From the NCBI GenBank assembly GCA_020846935.1, contig JADLCY010000004.1, positions 84,921 through 148,920 on the forward strand: a DNA stretch of 64,000 nt, read 5' to 3'. The notes beneath the pieces were generated by a model. That model did no database searches. It had not been told where the DNA came from and worked only from the letters and a program-made list of their open reading frames with translations. Position numbers and translations under genes: made by a program. This DNA comes from Gemmatimonadaceae bacterium. Its GTDB lineage: Bacteria; Gemmatimonadota; Gemmatimonadetes; Gemmatimonadales; Gemmatimonadaceae. Positions within the stretch are counted from its first letter, which is position 1. Every line of letters begins with the position of its first letter. Positions 3 through 14,106 of this stretch are shown piece after piece.

Positions 3-2123
3 GATGTTGCCACCGGCAAGTCGAAGGTGCTGACGCAGACGCCGCTGCTCGCGACGCTCGTCACATCGCTCGCCTGGACGTCCGACGGCCGCATCGTCGC
101 CGTGCTCGTACCGGACAATCGAGGGGCCGAACCCGTACGGCCAGCGGTCGAGACCGGCCCGCTCGTGCGACTCACCGATCCGGCAAAGAATCCGCAGCGG
201 GTATTTGCGTCGCTCCTGCGCGATCCGTTCGAGAAGGACCAGATGAAGTACTTCATCACGGGTCAGCTCGCGATCGTCGACAGCAAGACGGGTGCGGTGA
301 AGAAGGTGGGCGCGCCGGCGATGATCAGCGCCGTCGATCCGTCGCCCGACGGCAAGTACATCCGGGTGACGCAGATGCAGGAGCCGTTCTCGTACATCGT
401 GCAGTACGGCAGCTTTGGCACGGTGGAGCAGGTGTGGGACGCCGACGGTCGCGTCGTTGCCGAGCTTGCGAAGCGTCCGCTGCGAACCAGCGGAGCCGAT
501 GACCCGCTCGCGACGCCCGGCGCGGGCGGCCCGCCGGTCGATACCACGCGCCGCAACGTCGCGTGGCTCCCAAACGGCCAGGGACTCTCGTTCCTCAGAC
601 AGGAGCGTCCGGCTCGGCCCGCCGCGACCGACTCCGCCGACGCACCGCGAGGCGGTGCGGCGAATCGCGGCAAGGATCGGCTGTATCAGTGGGCGCCACC
701 CTTCTCGACGGGCAGCGAAAAGGTCCTGCTCGAGAGCGACAACCGCATGGGCGGCGTGCTCTTCAACGACGACGCGACCATGGCCTTCGTCGCCGAAAAC
801 GTGAGCGGCACGGGCCACGTGTACGCGGTGGATCTCAACGAGCCGACGAAGAAGCACACGCTGTGGCGCATGCGCGGGATCAACGCGCAGGTCGGCGGTG
901 GCTTTGGCGGGTTTGGTGGCGGCCGCGGCGGCGCCGGCGACGACTCGGTGACCTTCTATCAGAACCCGGGCAACCTCGTCACGAAGACGGGCAAGGCGGG
1001 CCGCGACGTCGTGCAGGTTTCGGCGGACGGCAAGTTCGCCTTCCTGCGCGGCACACGGTACTTCCGTGACTGGGAAAGCCAGGCCCCACGCGGGTTCGTC
1101 GACAAGGTCGAGATCCGGACCGGGCAGAAGTCGCGCCTGTTCGAAGGTGCGGCCGATGTCTTCGAGACGGTGAACGCGTCGCTCGACGACGACATGACGC
1201 AGATGGTAATCACGCGGGAGTCGTCGACCCTGGTGCCCAACGCGATCCTCAGGTCGGCCAGCGGAACGCTCAACCTCACGAGCAACACCGATCCCACGCC
1301 GGAGTTCACGAAGGCCATCCGCAAGCGCATCAAGGTCACGCGCTCCGACGGCATCAACTTCATGGTGAACCTCACGCTGCCGGCCGACTACAAGTCCGGA
1401 ACGCGGCTGCCCGCCATGTTGTGGCTCTATCCCGGTGAGTTCACCGACCAGGGCGGCTACGATCGTACCCTGCGGACGGAGAACATCAATCGGTTCCCGC
1501 AGGGCGGACCGCGCACGATCGAGTTCCTCGTGCTGCAGGGATACGCGGTGGCCAACTTCGCGCCGCCGGTCATTGGCGCGTCGGGTCGCATGAACGACAA
1601 CTACGTCTCGGACCTGCAGCGCAACCTGAGCGCCGTCATCGACGAGCTCGATGCGCAGGGCTTCATCGATCGCACGCGGTTGGGCATTGGCGGACACAGC
1701 TATGGCGCCTTCACCACCGTGAACGCGATGGTGCACACTCCGTACTTCAAGGCGGGTATCGCCGGCGACGGCATGTACAATCGCACGCTCACGCCGTTCA
1801 ACTTCCAGAGCGAGCGCCGCGACTTCTACGAGGCCCAGGCGACGTACCTCGAGATGTCGCCGTTCTTCAGCGCCGACAAGCTGCAGGGCGCGCTGTTGAT
1901 GTATCACTCGATCGAGGACCAGAACGTGGGTACCGCCCTGCTGTCGTCGGAGCGGATGATGCACGCACTCGAAGGTCTCGGAAAAACCGCGTCGCTCTAC
2001 ATGTATCCGTACGAAGACCACGGCCCGGCAGCGCGTGAGACGCTGCTCGACCAGTGGGCCCGATGGACCGCGTGGCTGGACGTGTACGTAAAGAACGCGA
2101 ACAAGCCCAAGGTGGCGTCGTAG
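3..2123 (+). CDS. S9 family (prolyl oligopeptidase / dipeptidyl-peptidase-like) serine peptidase, 5' end cut by window edge
   Basis: The frame is open from nt 3, with no stop before the listed GTG at 27. The C-terminal alpha/beta-hydrolase part has the nucleophile elbow GGHSYGAF, an acid-residue region YHSIEDQNV and a His region YPYEDHGP, as in S9 peptidases. Confidence 0.8.
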   Translation, partial: DVATGKSKVLTQTPLLATLVTSLAWTSDGRIVAVLVPDNRGAEPVRPAVETGPLVRLTDPAKNPQRVFASLLRDPFEKDQMKYFITGQLAIVDSKTGAVKKVGAPAMISAVDPSPDGKYIRVTQMQEPFSYIVQYGSFGTVEQVWDADGRVVAELAKRPLRTSGADDPLATPGAGGPPVDTTRRNVAWLPNGQGLSFLRQERPARPAATDSADAPRGGAANRGKDRLYQWAPPFSTGSEKVLLESDNRMGGVLFNDDATMAFVAENVSGTGHVYAVDLNEPTKKHTLWRMRGINAQVGGGFGGFGGGRGGAGDDSVTFYQNPGNLVTKTGKAGRDVVQVSADGKFAFLRGTRYFRDWESQAPRGFVDKVEIRTGQKSRLFEGAADVFETVNASLDDDMTQMVITRESSTLVPNAILRSASGTLNLTSNTDPTPEFTKAIRKRIKVTRSDGINFMVNLTLPADYKSGTRLPAMLWLYPGEFTDQGGYDRTLRTENINRFPQGGPRTIEFLVLQGYAVANFAPPVIGASGRMNDNYVSDLQRNLSAVIDELDAQGFIDRTRLGIGGHSYGAFTTVNAMVHTPYFKAGIAGDGMYNRTLTPFNFQSERRDFYEAQATYLEMSPFFSADKLQGALLMYHSIEDQNVGTALLSSERMMHALEGLGKTASLYMYPYEDHGPAARETLLDQWARWTAWLDVYVKNANKPKVAS

Positions 2124-10740: not shown

Positions 10741-10747
10741 AGGCGCC

Positions 10748-10822
10748 ATGAACGCCGCCGCCCGCCGCGCCTTTTTCTTCAGCTTTAGCCTCCCACACCC
10801 CGGGGAGAACGGCGGCGCGTAG
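10748..10822 (+). CDS. Phe-rich leader peptide (24 aa) of a transcription attenuator
   Basis: The ATG at 10748 through the TAG at 10820-10822 encodes [24 protein letters not shown]. Four Phe codons fall within five consecutive codons (TTT TTC TTC AGC TTT, 10772-10786). The ORF lies upstream of a terminator and a Phe-biosynthesis gene. Confidence 0.65.
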
Positions 10823-10846
10823 GCAGAAGACGCGATCGAGCCCAAA

Positions 10847-10872
10847 CCTCCCCGAGCGGGGAGGTTTTTTTT
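10847..10872 (+). terminator. rho-independent terminator (attenuator segment 3:4)
   Basis: CCTCCCC (10847-10853), loop GAGC and GGGGAGG (10858-10864) are followed by eight T (10865-10872). The structure ends 41 nt before the ATG at 10914. Confidence 0.75.
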
Positions 10873-10913
10873 GTCCCACGGAATCCCGGAACCAGGAACG
10901 GAGCATTTCCCCG

Positions 10914-12923
10914 ATGAGCCAGTCCATACCCGCCCTTGCCGAACTCCGCGAACGCATCGGCGCCCTCGACACGCAGCTGCTCGAACTGCTCGCGCAGCGG
11001 CAGGAGTGCGCCCGGGCGGTGGCCGAGAGCAAACTCGACGCGGCACTGCCCCTCCGCGACACCGAGCGTGAACGCGTGCTCCTGGGGCAACACGCGCAGC
11101 AGGGGCAGGCCCTTGGGCTGAATCCGCGCTTCGTCACCCGGGTGTTCCAGACGCTCATCGAGGAATCGCTCCGCACCCAGCGGCACACGCTGCAACCGCC
11201 TCCCAAGGCAACCAAAGTGGCCGTGCTCGGCGGGGAAGGATCCTACAGCGCGGCAGCTGCCCGGGCGTGCTTTACCGACAGCGACTACCAGATGGTACCC
11301 GGTCAGAAGTTCAGCGACGTGGTACGCCTGCTGCGCCGCGGCGAGGTCGACTACGCGGTCTTGCCGATCGAAAACAGTCTGACGGGTGCGATCAGCGCGG
11401 TGTACGACCTGCTGCGCGACGGCGACCTCTACATCGTGGGAGAGCACTACCTGCCGATCGTCCACAGCCTCCTCGCGCGTCCCGGTGTCACGCTCGGCGC
11501 ACTCCGACGTGTGCACGGTCACCCGCAATCGCTGGCGCAGTGCGAAACGTTCCTGCAGGGCCACGATCTGCTGCTGCACTACTGTGACAGCACGGCCGAG
11601 GCCCTGCGCACGGTGGCAGCGAGCGCCGAGCCCGACGCGGTGGTCGCCGGCGCAGACGCGGGGCGCGCACAGGGCCTGGTGGTGCTCGCCGAGGGCATCG
11701 CCAACGCACGCGAAGTCGAAACGCGCTTCATCGTGCTCGGCCGCGCGCGGGCAGCGGTACAGGAGTCGGTGGCGGCCAAGACGTCGCTGCTCTTCTCCAC
11801 CTGGTCACGCCCCGGCGCCCTGGTCGACGCACTGCAGGTGTTTCGCGATCGCGGGATCAACCTCACCCGCATCGAGTCGCGACCCATGGAGGGCGAGCCG
11901 TGGCAGATGATGTTCTTCGTCGATGCCGAGGGTAACGCAGACAGCAGCCGATTTGCCGAGGCGCTGCATGACGTGGCGCGGTGTACGCGGCTGTTGCGGG
12001 TGCTTGGCTGCTATCCGAACGATCGGGTTCCGCCGACCGACGTCCCGCTGGCGACGGTCGCGCAGTCGGAGGTCGCCGATGTGCCGGCCGCCGCGGCGCC
12101 GGCCGTACCCTCGGCAAAGGCTCCCGTGGCCAACAAGGCGTGGAAGCTCGCGAGCCGCGCACACAAGCCTGACGACACGATCATCGAGATCGGGCGGGCG
12201 CGCATCGGCGGCAACGGGTTCATGGTGATGGCGGGTCCGTGTTCCGTGGAGTCCGAAGGCCAGATCGAGCAGTGCGCCGAGTGGTCGGCGCAGCACGGCG
12301 CAGCGATGCTGCGCGGAGGGTGCTTCAAGCCGCGCACGTCACCCTACGCGTTCCAGGGCCTTGGCCTTCCGGGACTGGCCATGATGAAGGCCGCGGGCCA
12401 ACGCCACGGCCTGCCGATCATCACCGAGGTCATGGCTCCCGAGCAGGTCGACGACATCGCCGCTCAATCCGATGCCCTTCAGATCGGCGCACGCAACATG
12501 CAGAACTTCAGCCTGCTCAAGGCGGTGGGGAGAACGCACCTGCCGGTCCTGCTCAAGCGTGGGTTGATGAGTTCCGTGGACGAGTTGCTGCAGGCGGCCG
12601 AGTACATCCTGGCGGGCGGCAATCAGCAGGTGATGCTGTGCGAGCGCGGCATCCGCACTTTCGAGACGGCGACCCGCAACACCTTGGACCTGAGTGCGGT
12701 ACCCGTGCTCCGGGAGCTCACGCACCTGCCCATCATCGTGGACCCGTCGCACGCCGTGGGCCGTCGCGATCTCGTGGTGCCCATGGCGCTGGCTGCCAAG
12801 GCCGTTGGGGCGCACGGCATCATCGTCGAGTTCCACCCGCAGCCCGAGCAGGCCCTGTCCGACGGCCCGCAGGCGCTGTACTTCGAGCAGTTTGCCCAGA
12901 TGATGCAAAAGCTTCGTAGCTGA
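10914..12923 (+). CDS. pheA: fusion protein: chorismate mutase + prephenate dehydratase + ACT domain (P-protein) + type I-beta DAHP synthase
   Basis: Residues 1-90 form an AroQ-type chorismate mutase ([31 protein letters not shown]). Residues about 101-280 form the prephenate dehydratase ([30 protein letters not shown]). Residues about 289-367 form the ACT domain ([18 protein letters not shown]). Residues about 368-420 are an Ala/Pro-rich linker. Residues about 421-669 form the DAHP synthase ([27 protein letters not shown]). Confidence 0.9.
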
Positions 12924-12969
12924 CACCGGGTTGTCCCGGTCACACCGAAACGTGCGCATATTCCGCCAC

Positions 12970-14106
12970 ATGCGAATCTCGCTCACACGCGCGGCGCTCC
13001 TCGGCGTCCTGTCTGCGGCGACCGTCGACGCACAGTCGGTGGCCGTGACGCTCCTCTCCACCAGGGAGGTCGCGCTCGACGGCGGTGCAACCGAAATGCG
13101 CGGTCTGGTAGCGCTCGACATCTCCGGTACCCGGGTTCCCAAGCGATTCGTGCTGCGTGTGCCGCCCGTCGCGACATGGAACGGCGGGCTCGTGATCGGG
13201 GCGCACGGCGGCAGTGGCGGCGACAACTACGATCGCAGCGGCAAGGTCATTGGCACGGACGAGTCGGCACTCGACGACGTCGTGGGGCGGCAGGCACTCT
13301 CGATGGGATTTGCCTATGCCAGTGTCGATCGTGATGGCGCGGGCGCCTGGCGCGAAGGCTACGGGCTCACGCGCCAGTTCACACGTATCGCCGCCGAGCA
13401 GGTGGCACGGCGCCTGGGCCGCGCGCCGGCACGCACGTATCTCGTTGGCCTTTCGGCGGGCGGTGGCATTGCCCGTCTTGCGGCTGAGGACTCGCTCCGT
13501 GCGTACGCCGGTGTACTGATCATCGCCGGCGCTGGCGGCGACCGGCCAACGCGTCTCGATCGACAGCGCCGGATGGCGGAGCTGTGGCCGCAGGTCGATC
13601 CGCGAACCAGGCCAGAGCTGCCAGCCGACAGTCCGCTCCTCCGTGCCTACGCCGATGCGGTGGGTACGCCGATCGCGGCGCGGCGCCTGTGGCCATACAC
13701 CGGTGCGAGCGCCGTCGCCGCGACCTCTCGCGCCGCACCCGCGCGAACCGACGACGCGACCGGCGTGGTTCAGGTTCCCACGATCGAAGTCGTCGGGAGC
13801 TGGGACGATCTCGTGATCCGTGAGATCCGAGCGTACGATGCACGCGTACGACCGCGCGACCTCCACCGACTCTACGAGGTCGACGGTGCATGGCACATGT
13901 CGCCCGACGACGATGGCGTGTGGTCGTTCCAGTACATCGCGGAGACGCGCATGAAGCTCGGGAGCGACGTCGCCGACGCGATGGGCGAGGGCGCATCCTA
14001 CCTGCCGACCGTGCGCGATGCCTTCAGGCACCCGGTGCGGTGGGTCGAGCAGTCGGTTCCACCTCCGCCCAGTCGGGTGGTTCGGCCAGCGGATGGCCTG
14101 CAGTAA
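12970..14106 (+). CDS. secreted alpha/beta-hydrolase-fold protein, unknown specificity
   Basis: It has a signal peptide ([22 protein letters not shown]) and a candidate nucleophile elbow, [13 protein letters not shown] recognised no closer family. Confidence 0.5.

Follow-up and report, generated by a model that had tools for sequence, protein, structure and literature searches.

The window, i.e., the whole 64,000-nucleotide stretch of the Gemmatimonadaceae contig JADLCY010000004.1 that was analysed, had at positions 10914..12923 one uninterrupted ORF that began with ATG, encoded 669 aa and followed a predicted phenylalanine leader (Table 1). Its product combined chorismate mutase (CM), prephenate dehydratase (PDT) and ACT domains, in this order, with a type I-beta DAHP synthase barrel.

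Table 1. Positions of the fusion gene, its domains and its upstream leader elements in the window
Feature	Position	Strand	Evidence
Leader ORF with 4 Phe among 5 consecutive codons (10772-10786)	10748..10822	+	translation
Predicted attenuator segments 1 (CCTCCC, 10789-10794) and 2 (CCGGGGAG, 10800-10807)	10789..10807	+	ViennaRNA
Predicted intrinsic terminator: 10-bp stem AAACCTCCCC / GGGGAGGTTT, loop GAGC, then T-run	10844..10873	+	terminator scan, MFE fold
Fusion gene CM - PDT - ACT - linker - DAHP synthase I-beta	10914..12923	+	ORF, Pfam, NCBIfam, homologs, bridging contig, strain variants
AroQ-type CM domain, residues 11-89	10944..11180	+	Pfam CM_2, 69.2 bits, E 3.6e-19
PDT catalytic domain, residues 102-278	11217..11747	+	Pfam PDT, 172.6 bits, E 9.2e-51
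ACT domain, residues 298-355	11805..11978	+	Pfam ACT, 38.7 bits, E 8.3e-10
Low-complexity Ala/Pro/Val-rich linker between the enzymes, residues 369-407 (39 aa)	12018..12134	+	
Type I-beta DAHP synthase barrel, residues 408-668	12135..12917	+	gapless alignment to T. maritima DAH7PS

The preliminary description had reported this four-domain architecture, and the Pfam and NCBIfam matches supported it. Its assignment of the barrel to the I-beta class was also correct, since TIGR01361 (374.5 bits, cut-off 267.75) and PRK08673 (residues 406-668, 419.9 bits, cut-off 335) both scored above their cut-offs; the Pfam DAHP_synth_1 match covered residues 429-667 (250 bits, E 2.5e-74). PRK12595, the model of the Bacillus-type CM-DAH7PS, likewise exceeded its cut-off (377 vs. 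279 bits). The P-protein part had the CM_2, PDT and ACT domains in order, together with their catalytic and Phe-site motifs, and PRK10622 reached 326.4 of the 577 bits required, below the level of the enterobacterial equivalog. The domain limits first proposed (P-protein 1-367, barrel from about 421 to 669) were accurate to within about 13 residues, and homology to the solved I-beta enzymes began at residue 408.

The stretch between the enzymes, described earlier as an Ala/Pro-rich linker, had the expected composition. Its length ranged from 31 to 60 aa (median 41) across 118 homologs, it was unconserved past the first ~17 residues, and residues 380-400 had AF2 pLDDT values of 55-58. Such a long, low-complexity and unconserved linker differed from the short linkers of the characterised gated enzymes, which spoke against gating. 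The AF2 model of the whole chain had a mean pLDDT of 91.0 and a pTM of 0.81; this pTM exceeded the value expected for independently placed domains, suggesting that the domains may be packed in a defined way.

Gene integrity and the upstream leader

The possibility of an assembly join at the linker was settled by an independent-study metagenome contig (X8 record 29, about 98% identical) that spanned positions 11514-12219 with substitutions only and no gaps; the frame was continuous, there was no stop or frameshift, and the gene was genuine. No indels were reported in four sequencing runs, and an ortholog with 80% identity was encoded by a single ORF in another genome (G276). The gene was under purifying selection, with 35 of 37 strain variants synonymous and two non-synonymous, and all 20 variants listed within the barrel were synonymous. 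Apparent joints at 12507>12628/12630 (X5, X8) were considered as a deletion form of the gene and rejected: their sides were only 27-29 letters long and lay within the most conserved DAHPS motifs, so they were read as fragments of other organisms. No RNA runs were listed among the sequencing runs that matched the window sequence.

The Phe leader proposed upstream of the gene also held up, as a Phe-rich ORF and a terminator were found there and similar leaders recurred before related fusions of the same phylum. The region had the predicted pheL-type layout: several Phe codons stood close together in a short ORF, which was followed by hairpins that exclude one another and by an intrinsic terminator 41 nt before the fusion start codon. 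Rfam Phe_leader (RF01859) gave a full-length but weak match at 10747-10873 (28.5 bits, E 0.012) that did not reach the gathering score of 55. In ViennaRNA folds, which are thermodynamic models, segment 2 had two alternative pairing partners, segment 1 and the 5' arm of the terminator. The modelled duplex energies were -9.9 kcal/mol for 1:2, -12.1 kcal/mol for 2:3 and -17.4 kcal/mol for 3:4, and the 2:3 structure was predicted to form at -24.0 kcal/mol when segment 1 was masked and segment 4 was absent.

The same CTCCCC/GGGGAG hairpin followed by T10 was located upstream of the G276 ortholog, and the leader of the closest ortholog had just two Phe codons. Phe-rich leader ORFs followed by T-runs were found upstream of nine related fusion genes of the same phylum, namely all seven in-phylum fusions that lacked the CM domain and two other four-domain fusions. 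The idea that the leader was an imported gammaproteobacterial pheL was weakened, since Phe-rich leaders also preceded distantly related in-phylum fusions.

Active sites and genomic context

All three enzymatic parts retained their characteristic residues. The CM residues R12, R29, K40, D49, R52, E53, S85 and Q89 were intact and aligned with R11, R28, K39, D48, R51, E52, S84 and Q88 of E. coli CM (1ecm); these active-site positions were invariant or nearly so among the 118 homologs. Alignment to Phe-bound PDT structures (3mwb, 2qmx) revealed the PDT motif T270-R271-F272, and the ACT motifs G301-A-L-V and E321-S-R-P aligned with their counterparts in Phe-bound PDTs. PDT and the phenylalanine/tryptophan hydroxylases had the nearest ACT sequences.

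Barrel residues 408-668 formed a gapless 261-residue alignment with residues 67-327 of T. maritima DAH7PS. In this alignment C443, H613, E639 and D650 corresponded to C102, H272, E298 and D309, which we take to be the metal ligands of the T. maritima enzyme. The KPRT(S), GARN and KRG substrate-binding motifs were likewise there, with K472-P-R-T-S, R527, K548-R549, R578 and R581 present, and 10 of 10 checked catalytic and ligand-binding positions were intact. The A. pernix and P. furiosus enzymes shared 57% identity with the barrel (rmsd 1.4-1.9 A), and the catalytic residues of the barrel were kept in 117 of the 118 members of the close family. Judged from its sequence, the barrel in the window looked catalytically competent, and with its residues intact this copy belonged to the minority among the four-domain clusters at 50% identity.

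The fusion gene was the only PF00800 match, and thus the sole PDT, in the 4.52-Mb genome (100% complete). The same genome encoded three I-beta barrels including the fusion, and no type II DAHPS was found in it. The two other barrels were bare, leaving the fusion as the only one of the three DAHP synthase paralogs with any sensor domain. Of two further CM_2 genes, one encoded a CM-prephenate dehydrogenase and the other a small separate CM. The fusion was the only DAHP_synth_1 match in one Acidimicrobiia MAG, which had no type II enzyme.

Distribution, annotation and descent

The close family included at least 118 full-length clusters at 90% identity from several phyla, and the layout was remarked upon in 2005 for Shewanella oneidensis, with an 'aroA I-beta pseudogene' as the part attached to its aroQ-pheA (Song, Bonner, Wolinsky and Jensen 2005, PMC1173090). 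Thus, the fusion was not unusual: the layout has been known since 2005 and is widespread in bacterial phyla, and the copy in the window is a typical representative of the intact subgroup. An architecture both common and already characterised had been named as counting against the preliminary view. The first part was true, and for the second the openly accessible literature yielded no biochemical or structural study of the fusion, the 2005 remark being all that turned up. The literature on DAHPS allostery and on Phe attenuators in this phylum contained nothing about the fusion, and none of the solved structures found in structure comparisons had all four domains.

About 45 four-domain clusters were found among the best 150 representatives at 50% identity. 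In about 33 of these 45 distant representatives (about three quarters) the barrel was degenerate and had lost its catalytic residues, and the CM, PDT and ACT domains of such proteins stayed intact. The Pfam barrel score was 250 bits in the window copy versus 22-173 bits in the degenerate forms. For example, the barrel of the Agarivorans proteins (cluster P0125) lacked metal ligands and substrate-binding residues and scored 171 bits. The domain order of the Shewanella and Agarivorans proteins was the same as in the window, CM-PDT-ACT-barrel in one polypeptide, but the Agarivorans barrel was degenerate and that of the window intact; the 'pseudogene' statement was examined on the related, Alteromonadales-type Agarivorans cluster and on other representatives. 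The prevalence of dead barrels among the distant relatives alters the probable purpose of the fusion.

NCBI named relatives 'bifunctional DAHP synthase/chorismate mutase' because PRK12595 scored above its cut-off; for intact fusions such a name omits the dehydratase. Dead-barrel forms, e.g., from Agarivorans, were named '3-deoxy-7-phosphoheptulonate synthase'. Public annotation thus misleads in both directions, and metabolic reconstructions can be distorted.

The copy in the window clustered with gammaproteobacterial copies and not with those of its own phylum, and its closest homologs outside the phylum were from Permianibacter (P0002). Since it grouped with gammaproteobacterial rather than in-phylum copies, horizontal transfer of the fusion gene was likely. 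A Gemmatimonadales MAG had the same pattern of a fusion without CM as family f2, and this shared pattern was the basis on which the phylum was taken to be Gemmatimonadota.

Possible function and comparison with known systems

We considered it very likely that the gene encoded a real and intact three-enzyme protein that was the sole PDT of its genome and stood behind a Phe-type leader. The fuller explanation, to which we assigned a probability of roughly 0.5, was that this protein was a three-enzyme Phe isozyme subject to two levels of Phe control, including Phe gating of the barrel. A complete P-protein would be tethered by a flexible linker of ~40 residues to a competent I-beta barrel. The fusion would then act as an isozyme of the entry enzyme that is dedicated to phenylalanine, because it was the sole PDT and the only DAHPS paralog with a sensor domain. 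When Phe-tRNA was scarce, the ribosome would stall and mask segment 1, segment 2 would pair with segment 3, and the terminator would fail to form. At the protein level, Phe bound at the ACT dimer interface would inhibit the dehydratase, as it does in other P-proteins, and the Phe-bound P-protein module might also restrict the tethered barrel. The ACT-like and CM modules located N-terminally on other I-beta enzymes served as the analogy for this last step. It is plausible that Phe inhibits the DAHP synthase part; the enzyme activities of the fusion and its attenuation we inferred.

Residues 1-376 of the fusion had the same AroQ CM - PDT - ACT order as the E. coli-type PheA, with the CM active-site residues and the TRF and GALV/ESRP motifs all present. 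Like E. coli pheA with its pheL, the fusion gene had a short Phe-rich leader ORF and a terminator, at an Rfam score below the gathering threshold. However, the E. coli-type PheA lacks the extra 300 residues that comprised the linker and the complete DAHP synthase barrel.

To our knowledge, every characterised N-terminal appendage on an I-beta DAH7PS is allosteric. T. maritima DAH7PS is gated by Tyr via its ACT-like domain, and the Geobacillus, Bacillus and Listeria enzymes are gated by prephenate via CM. The fusion shared with T. maritima DAH7PS (1rzm, 3pg9) and the chimera 4grs the location of an ACT-type sensor N-terminal to the barrel. Accordingly, Foldseek aligned T. maritima DAH7PS over both the ACT domain and the barrel of the fusion, and the PRK08673 match started at model position 65, the end of the T. 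maritima regulatory domain. PDB 4GRS was among the structural matches to the fusion barrel; we take it to be an engineered ACT-barrel chimera in which an ACT-like graft onto a bare barrel suffices for regulation.

However, the fusion was not of the Thermotoga type, in which an ACT-like domain of ~65 residues abuts the barrel, since its own ACT domain sat about 40 residues away and inside an enzyme. The predicted domain pose differed as well (rmsd 12-16 A over both domains of the model). A sequence comparison of the ACT region with the T. maritima regulatory domain gave no match at E <= 10, and the idea that the latter was a remnant of a P-protein ACT domain was rejected as it had no sequence support. 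The ACT domains of PDTs are constitutive dimers, so the gate by 'ligand-induced ACT dimerisation' of T. maritima would probably not be directly transferable.

The N-terminal CM-DAH7PS enzymes of Bacillus subtilis, Listeria monocytogenes and Geobacillus sp. (3nvt, 3tfc, 5j6f) also had an AroQ CM at the N-terminus of an I-beta chain, and their barrels were 49-50% identical to that of the fusion (rmsd 1.5 A). In these enzymes CM caps the barrel directly, whereas in the fusion residues 90-407 (PDT, ACT and linker) intervened, setting it apart from the Bacillus type despite the PRK12595 score. Moreover, the Bacillus-type CM acts mainly as a prephenate sensor (PMC8408635), while the CM of the fusion belonged to the only P-protein of the genome. 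The C-terminal DAH7PS-CM of Prevotella nigrescens and Porphyromonas gingivalis was similar to the fusion in that the entry enzyme was covalently joined to a branch-point enzyme, but it had the opposite domain order and no PDT or ACT. Its domains depend on each other reciprocally (PMC8408635, PMC12202928), which provided a precedent for interdependence of a barrel and its partner.

A different explanation, which we regarded as quite possible, was an active three-enzyme protein with no allosteric cross-talk. The fusion would then only serve to co-express its parts in equimolar amounts under the Phe attenuator, with the barrel tetramer as a scaffold on which the P-protein oligomerises, and Phe would act on the dehydratase and on transcription but not on DAHPS. 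This agreed with the linker, which was long, variable, of low complexity and low pLDDT, and with the attenuator, which by itself would already give a Phe response. The retention of dead barrels in about 33 of the 45 representatives pointed in the same direction: it showed a selectable role that did not involve DAHPS catalysis, and indicated that the barrel served the P-protein, e.g., as a scaffold, rather than the reverse. On the other hand, the characterised N-terminal I-beta appendages were all allosteric and an ACT-like graft presumably confers regulation (4GRS). The other two barrels of the genome had no sensor, so that without coupling the cell would have no feedback-inhibited DAHPS. The pTM of 0.81 also suggested defined packing between the domains.

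It was very improbable that the barrel was non-catalytic in the window as well and that the protein was simply a P-protein whose C-terminal barrel was structural, as was assumed for Shewanella in the 2005 paper, which termed that barrel a pseudogene (PMC1173090). The barrels of most of the distant fusions were degenerate and two other DAHP synthases of the genome could feed the pathway. However, all 10 checked positions were intact here, the Pfam score was above the range of the degenerate forms, the barrel was 57% identical and structurally close to active archaeal enzymes, the residues were kept in 117 of 118 close relatives, and the listed barrel variants were synonymous without exception. 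A sequencing or assembly artefact joining separate pheA and aroA genes had a negligible probability, because the low complexity of the linker and the metagenome-type appearance of the assembly (matching runs were wastewater, sludge, biofilm and microbial-mat metagenomes, two of them flagged as possible sources of the DNA) were outweighed by the gap-free bridging contig, the absence of indels in four runs, the single-ORF ortholog and the full-length homologs.

Flux into aromatic amino-acid synthesis is gated by DAHP synthase, whose I-beta class is a textbook example of how allostery is acquired through an added domain. We found no study of a whole Phe-sensing P-protein as the added module, though many bacterial phyla encode one. 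Returning to Phe gating of the barrel, we put forward a more speculative and rather doubtful extension: the intact members might be reciprocally coupled, so that the Phe-bound P-protein would close over and inhibit the barrel, and the barrel tetramer would be needed for assembly or activity of the P-protein. If true, I-beta DAH7PS would have, besides the ACT-like and CM modules, a third class of allosteric appendage that has so far gone undescribed, and the need of the P-protein for the barrel would explain why the latter was retained after the loss of catalysis in most lineages. The natural contrasts within the family, between live and dead barrels and between forms with and without CM, make such coupling testable.

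A four-domain gene

The fusion gene was a single open reading frame of 669 codons with an ATG start. It had been described in preliminary form as chorismate mutase (CM), prephenate dehydratase (PDT) and ACT domains joined by an Ala/Pro-rich linker to a type I-beta DAHP synthase (DAH7PS), and this description was accurate, since Pfam and NCBIfam assigned all of these parts and the linker was rich in Ala, Pro and Val. The C-terminal part scored as an I-beta enzyme with two NCBIfam models (PRK08673, 419.9 bits, cut-off 335; TIGR01361, 374.5 bits, cut-off 267.75). The N-terminal 376 residues were P-protein-like, matching PRK10622 (NCBIfam) at 326 bits, below its 577-bit equivalog cut-off.

Features of the fusion gene, its surroundings and related loci of the same genome
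Feature	Position	Strand	Remark
Fusion ORF	10914-12923	+	
CM_2	residues 11-89		Pfam
PDT	residues 102-278		Pfam
ACT	residues 298-355		Pfam
Linker	residues 369-407		
DAHP_synth_1	residues 429-667		Pfam, E 2.5e-74
Leader ORF	10748-10822	+	translation
Segment 1	10789-10794		
Segment 2	10800-10807		
Terminator-type hairpin	10844-10873	+	after leader ORF; 10-bp, GC-rich, with T-run
391-aa ORF	12931-14106	+	
Third DAHP synthase paralog	L001 1405..2343	-	contig C14
Separate AroQ	L001 about 1112..1404	-	~98 aa
Bare DAHP synthase paralog	L003 1414..2298	-	contig C1
Leader ORF MRLSAATAQNFYFAGAYWYTSGRWTRTS	L003 2472..2386	-	contig C1
Hairpin GGCCCCCGA/TCGGGGGCC	L003 2352..2330	-	with T-tract

Three independent lines of evidence, namely independent assemblies, purifying selection and conservation, established the fusion as a real single gene. 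The stretch was present in public metagenomes of wastewater, sludge, biofilm and microbial mat (20 runs, 11 studies), and no insertions or deletions were reported in the contigs of four runs (three studies) aligned to it. The assembly join that the preliminary description had considered was contradicted by a contig from an independent study (X8 record 29; strain ~98% identical), which covered the entire ACT-linker-barrel junction (11514-12219) continuously and differed by substitutions only. The reading frame was under purifying selection: 35 of the 37 strain substitutions listed within it were synonymous and 33 fell on third codon positions. The two replacements were A355T and N369S, and all 20 substitutions listed in the barrel were synonymous.

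The barrel aligned without gaps to residues 67-327 of the T. maritima DAH7PS, and its C443, H613, E639 and D650 matched the metal ligands C102, H272, E298 and D309 of that enzyme. The KPRTS, GARN and KRG motifs were also present. In the CM domain, all eight active-site residues were conserved in the alignment to E. coli CM (1ecm). The PDT domain kept the TRF motif, and the ACT domain kept the GALV and ESRP motifs that line the Phe site in P-proteins. The positions checked in all four domains were invariant or nearly so across 118 close homologs. An AlphaFold2 model based on the homolog alignment had a mean pLDDT of 91.0 and a pTM of 0.81, with low confidence mainly in the linker, and its barrel was 57% identical to the A. 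pernix and P. furiosus enzymes and superposed on them with an rmsd of 1.4-1.9 A. None of the solved structures searched spanned more than one enzyme part of the fusion. The chain was intact, selected, conserved and composed of three enzymes. Homology gives good support for inferring that it would have CM, PDT and DAHP synthase activities and that Phe would inhibit its PDT through the ACT domain.

Phe leader, paralogs and origin

The region upstream of the fusion gave a full-length, sub-threshold match to the Rfam Phe_leader family (28.5 bits against 55, E 0.012). Segment 1 began 3 nt past the last Phe codon of the leader, and segment 2 duplicated the 3' arm of the terminator and could therefore pair with either segment 1 or the 5' arm (segment 3); in RNA folding, the 2:3 structure formed when segment 1 was masked. 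Phe-rich leader ORFs followed by T-runs also lay upstream of two other four-domain fusions and of all seven in-phylum fusions lacking CM that were examined. The 80%-identical ortholog of another genome of the phylum (G276) kept the terminator, and its leader had only two Phe codons. Comparative support for the Phe leader was better than the Rfam score suggested, and Phe attenuation of the gene was therefore considered likely.

The assembly comprised 4.52 Mb in 15 contigs and was 100% complete. Its only PDT match was the fusion, and no type II DAHP synthase was found in it. The four DAHP_synth_1-family matches were the fusion, a KDO8P synthase adjoining pyrG, and two bare I-beta barrels (312 and 294 residues) without a sensor domain; mutual identity of the three DAHP synthase barrels was only 51-54%. 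A CM-prephenate dehydrogenase was also encoded. With a single PDT match and the other two barrels bare, phenylpyruvate could therefore be reached only through the fusion, and no other DAHP synthase isozyme carried a ligand-sensing module.

The third paralog, one of the two bare barrels, followed a pyruvate-phosphate-dikinase-like ORF at a distance of 48 nt, and its stop overlapped the start of the separate AroQ chorismate mutase, which looked like a split version of a DAH7PS-CM pair. Outside the window, the bare paralog at L003 was preceded by a 28-codon leader ORF that included 2 Phe, 3 Tyr and 2 Trp and by a strong hairpin 54 nt ahead of its start, a candidate mixed-aromatic attenuator on a second isozyme.

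The genes flanking the fusion (YceI, an SRPBCC protein, an alpha/beta-hydrolase-like ORF and TesB) were unrelated to the pathway, and none was shared with the G276 locus. The 391-aa ORF, which had weak alpha/beta-hydrolase matches (Abhydrolase_10, 26 bits), started 8 nt past the fusion stop and may be co-transcribed with it; its counterpart was absent at the G276 locus. In a FastTree phylogeny built on PDT-ACT and barrel columns, the protein clustered with those of G276 and P0002 (support 1.0). This group was sister to a Permianibacter-containing group (0.97), both within the proteobacterial set, and the remaining in-phylum fusions formed a separate clade (0.997). The window's protein shared 72% trimmed identity with Permianibacter and 46-51% with the copies from its own phylum. 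Horizontal transfer was the simplest reading, and the gene was probably acquired in this way.

Distribution of live and dead barrels

The best 120 database matches were all full-length, with 47-75% identity. The four-domain layout was found in 118 of them, and the other two added an N-terminal aminotransferase domain. The preliminary description had allowed that the layout might prove common and already characterised. It was indeed common and already in print, but the only mention that we found in the literature was that of Song, Bonner, Wolinsky and Jensen (2005), who termed the Shewanella oneidensis case 'bizarre' and interpreted it as a pseudogene of aroA I-beta joined to aroQ-pheA (PMC1173090).

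Homologs named in the protein database came from Permianibacter, Kangiellaceae, Aliikangiella, Iodidimonas, Rhodothalassiaceae, Ignavibacteriales/Melioribacteraceae, Bacteroidetes and Deltaproteobacteria, and a scan of species-representative genomes added Acidimicrobiia, Chthoniobacterales, Acidobacteriota/Holophagales and Krumholzibacteriia. Within the phylum, 6 of 301 sampled genomes, including the window's own and G276, encoded the four-domain fusion. Another 36 encoded a CM-less PDT-ACT-DAHPS form, as did two with copies truncated at contig ends; all 38 fell in a single family within the order of the window's genome, and the remaining genomes had stand-alone barrels only. Of four unpublished genomes in the sample (G057, G096, G181, G156), G057 carried the CM-less form and none the four-domain form. 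The CM-less pattern also occurred in a Gemmatimonadales MAG, which pointed to Gemmatimonadota as the probable phylum.

In the family with the CM-less form (36-38 of 125 genomes), these proteins were ~560-600 aa long, with all checked barrel residues intact and Phe-rich leaders present. By match span alone, records from Anaerolineae, Spirochaetaceae, Thermotogae and Clostridia/Ruminococcus matched query residues ~100-668. The loci noted for the CM-less layout were L095-L101, from genomes of the phylum, and L019, L022, L035, L053, L073 and L078. Two long proteins, P0060 (981 aa) and P0106 (1036 aa), had a class IV aminotransferase domain (PF01063) ahead of CM-PDT-DAHPS, and L017 (open frame 1010 aa) was probably another such variant; this domain might convert phenylpyruvate to Phe, or it might resemble PabC. 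In a 2.0-Mb Acidimicrobiia MAG (G304, holding L010), the fusion was the only DAHP_synth_1 match and no type II DAHP synthase was found. Should this MAG be complete, entry into the pathway would depend on the fused barrel alone.

When 1.84 billion 50%-identity representatives were searched exhaustively, the best 150 matches included about 45 four-domain clusters, together with CM-less forms and permuted forms with an N-terminal barrel. Six of the permuted proteins (P0137, P0138, P0139, P0144, P0156, P0197; 620-650 aa) had the barrel at residues ~58-330, followed by a second matched stretch. Therefore, DAHPS/Phe-branch fusions arose in more than one order. The CM, PDT and ACT signature residues were intact in nearly all aligned representatives, and the ten checked barrel residues were intact in only 11 of the 45 four-domain ones, including the window's protein, a typical member of this live-barrel subgroup. 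In degenerate barrels the DAHP_synth_1 score fell from 173 to 22 bits, and PDT held at 139-200 bits. The 667-aa Agarivorans cluster (P0125), from the same order as Shewanella, lacked three metal ligands (Cys, His and Glu) and two of the checked substrate-binding residues (K548E, R578A), with CM, PDT and ACT intact, in agreement with the S. oneidensis pseudogene description (PMC1173090). Its NCBI name, '3-deoxy-7-phosphoheptulonate synthase', was probably a mis-annotation.

Possible roles of the fused barrel

By analogy with the T. maritima DAH7PS, Phe might inhibit the fused barrel. In both proteins the sensor was N-terminal to the barrel, the PRK08673 match began exactly at the end of the T. 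maritima sensor, and Foldseek aligned the T. maritima sensor and barrel to the fusion in order. The high pTM of the model and the bare state of the other two barrels were also counted for gating. On the other hand, the linker was long and variable across homologs, and no similarity of the ACT domain to the T. maritima sensor was found. Dead barrels persisted in relatives, which argued that the barrel was kept for the benefit of the P-protein, most simply as a tetramerisation scaffold; the fusion might also serve co-expression. Gating and these alternatives, which are not mutually exclusive, stood at about even odds.

The appendages covered in recent DAH7PS papers were only N-terminal CM, C-terminal CM and ACT-like domains (PMC8408635, PMC12202928). 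The remaining interest belonged to the family rather than to the window's locus. It offered a class of I-beta DAH7PS appendage that is apparently unstudied, a naturally occurring series of barrels, some live and some dead, and a case of systematic mis-naming in public annotation.
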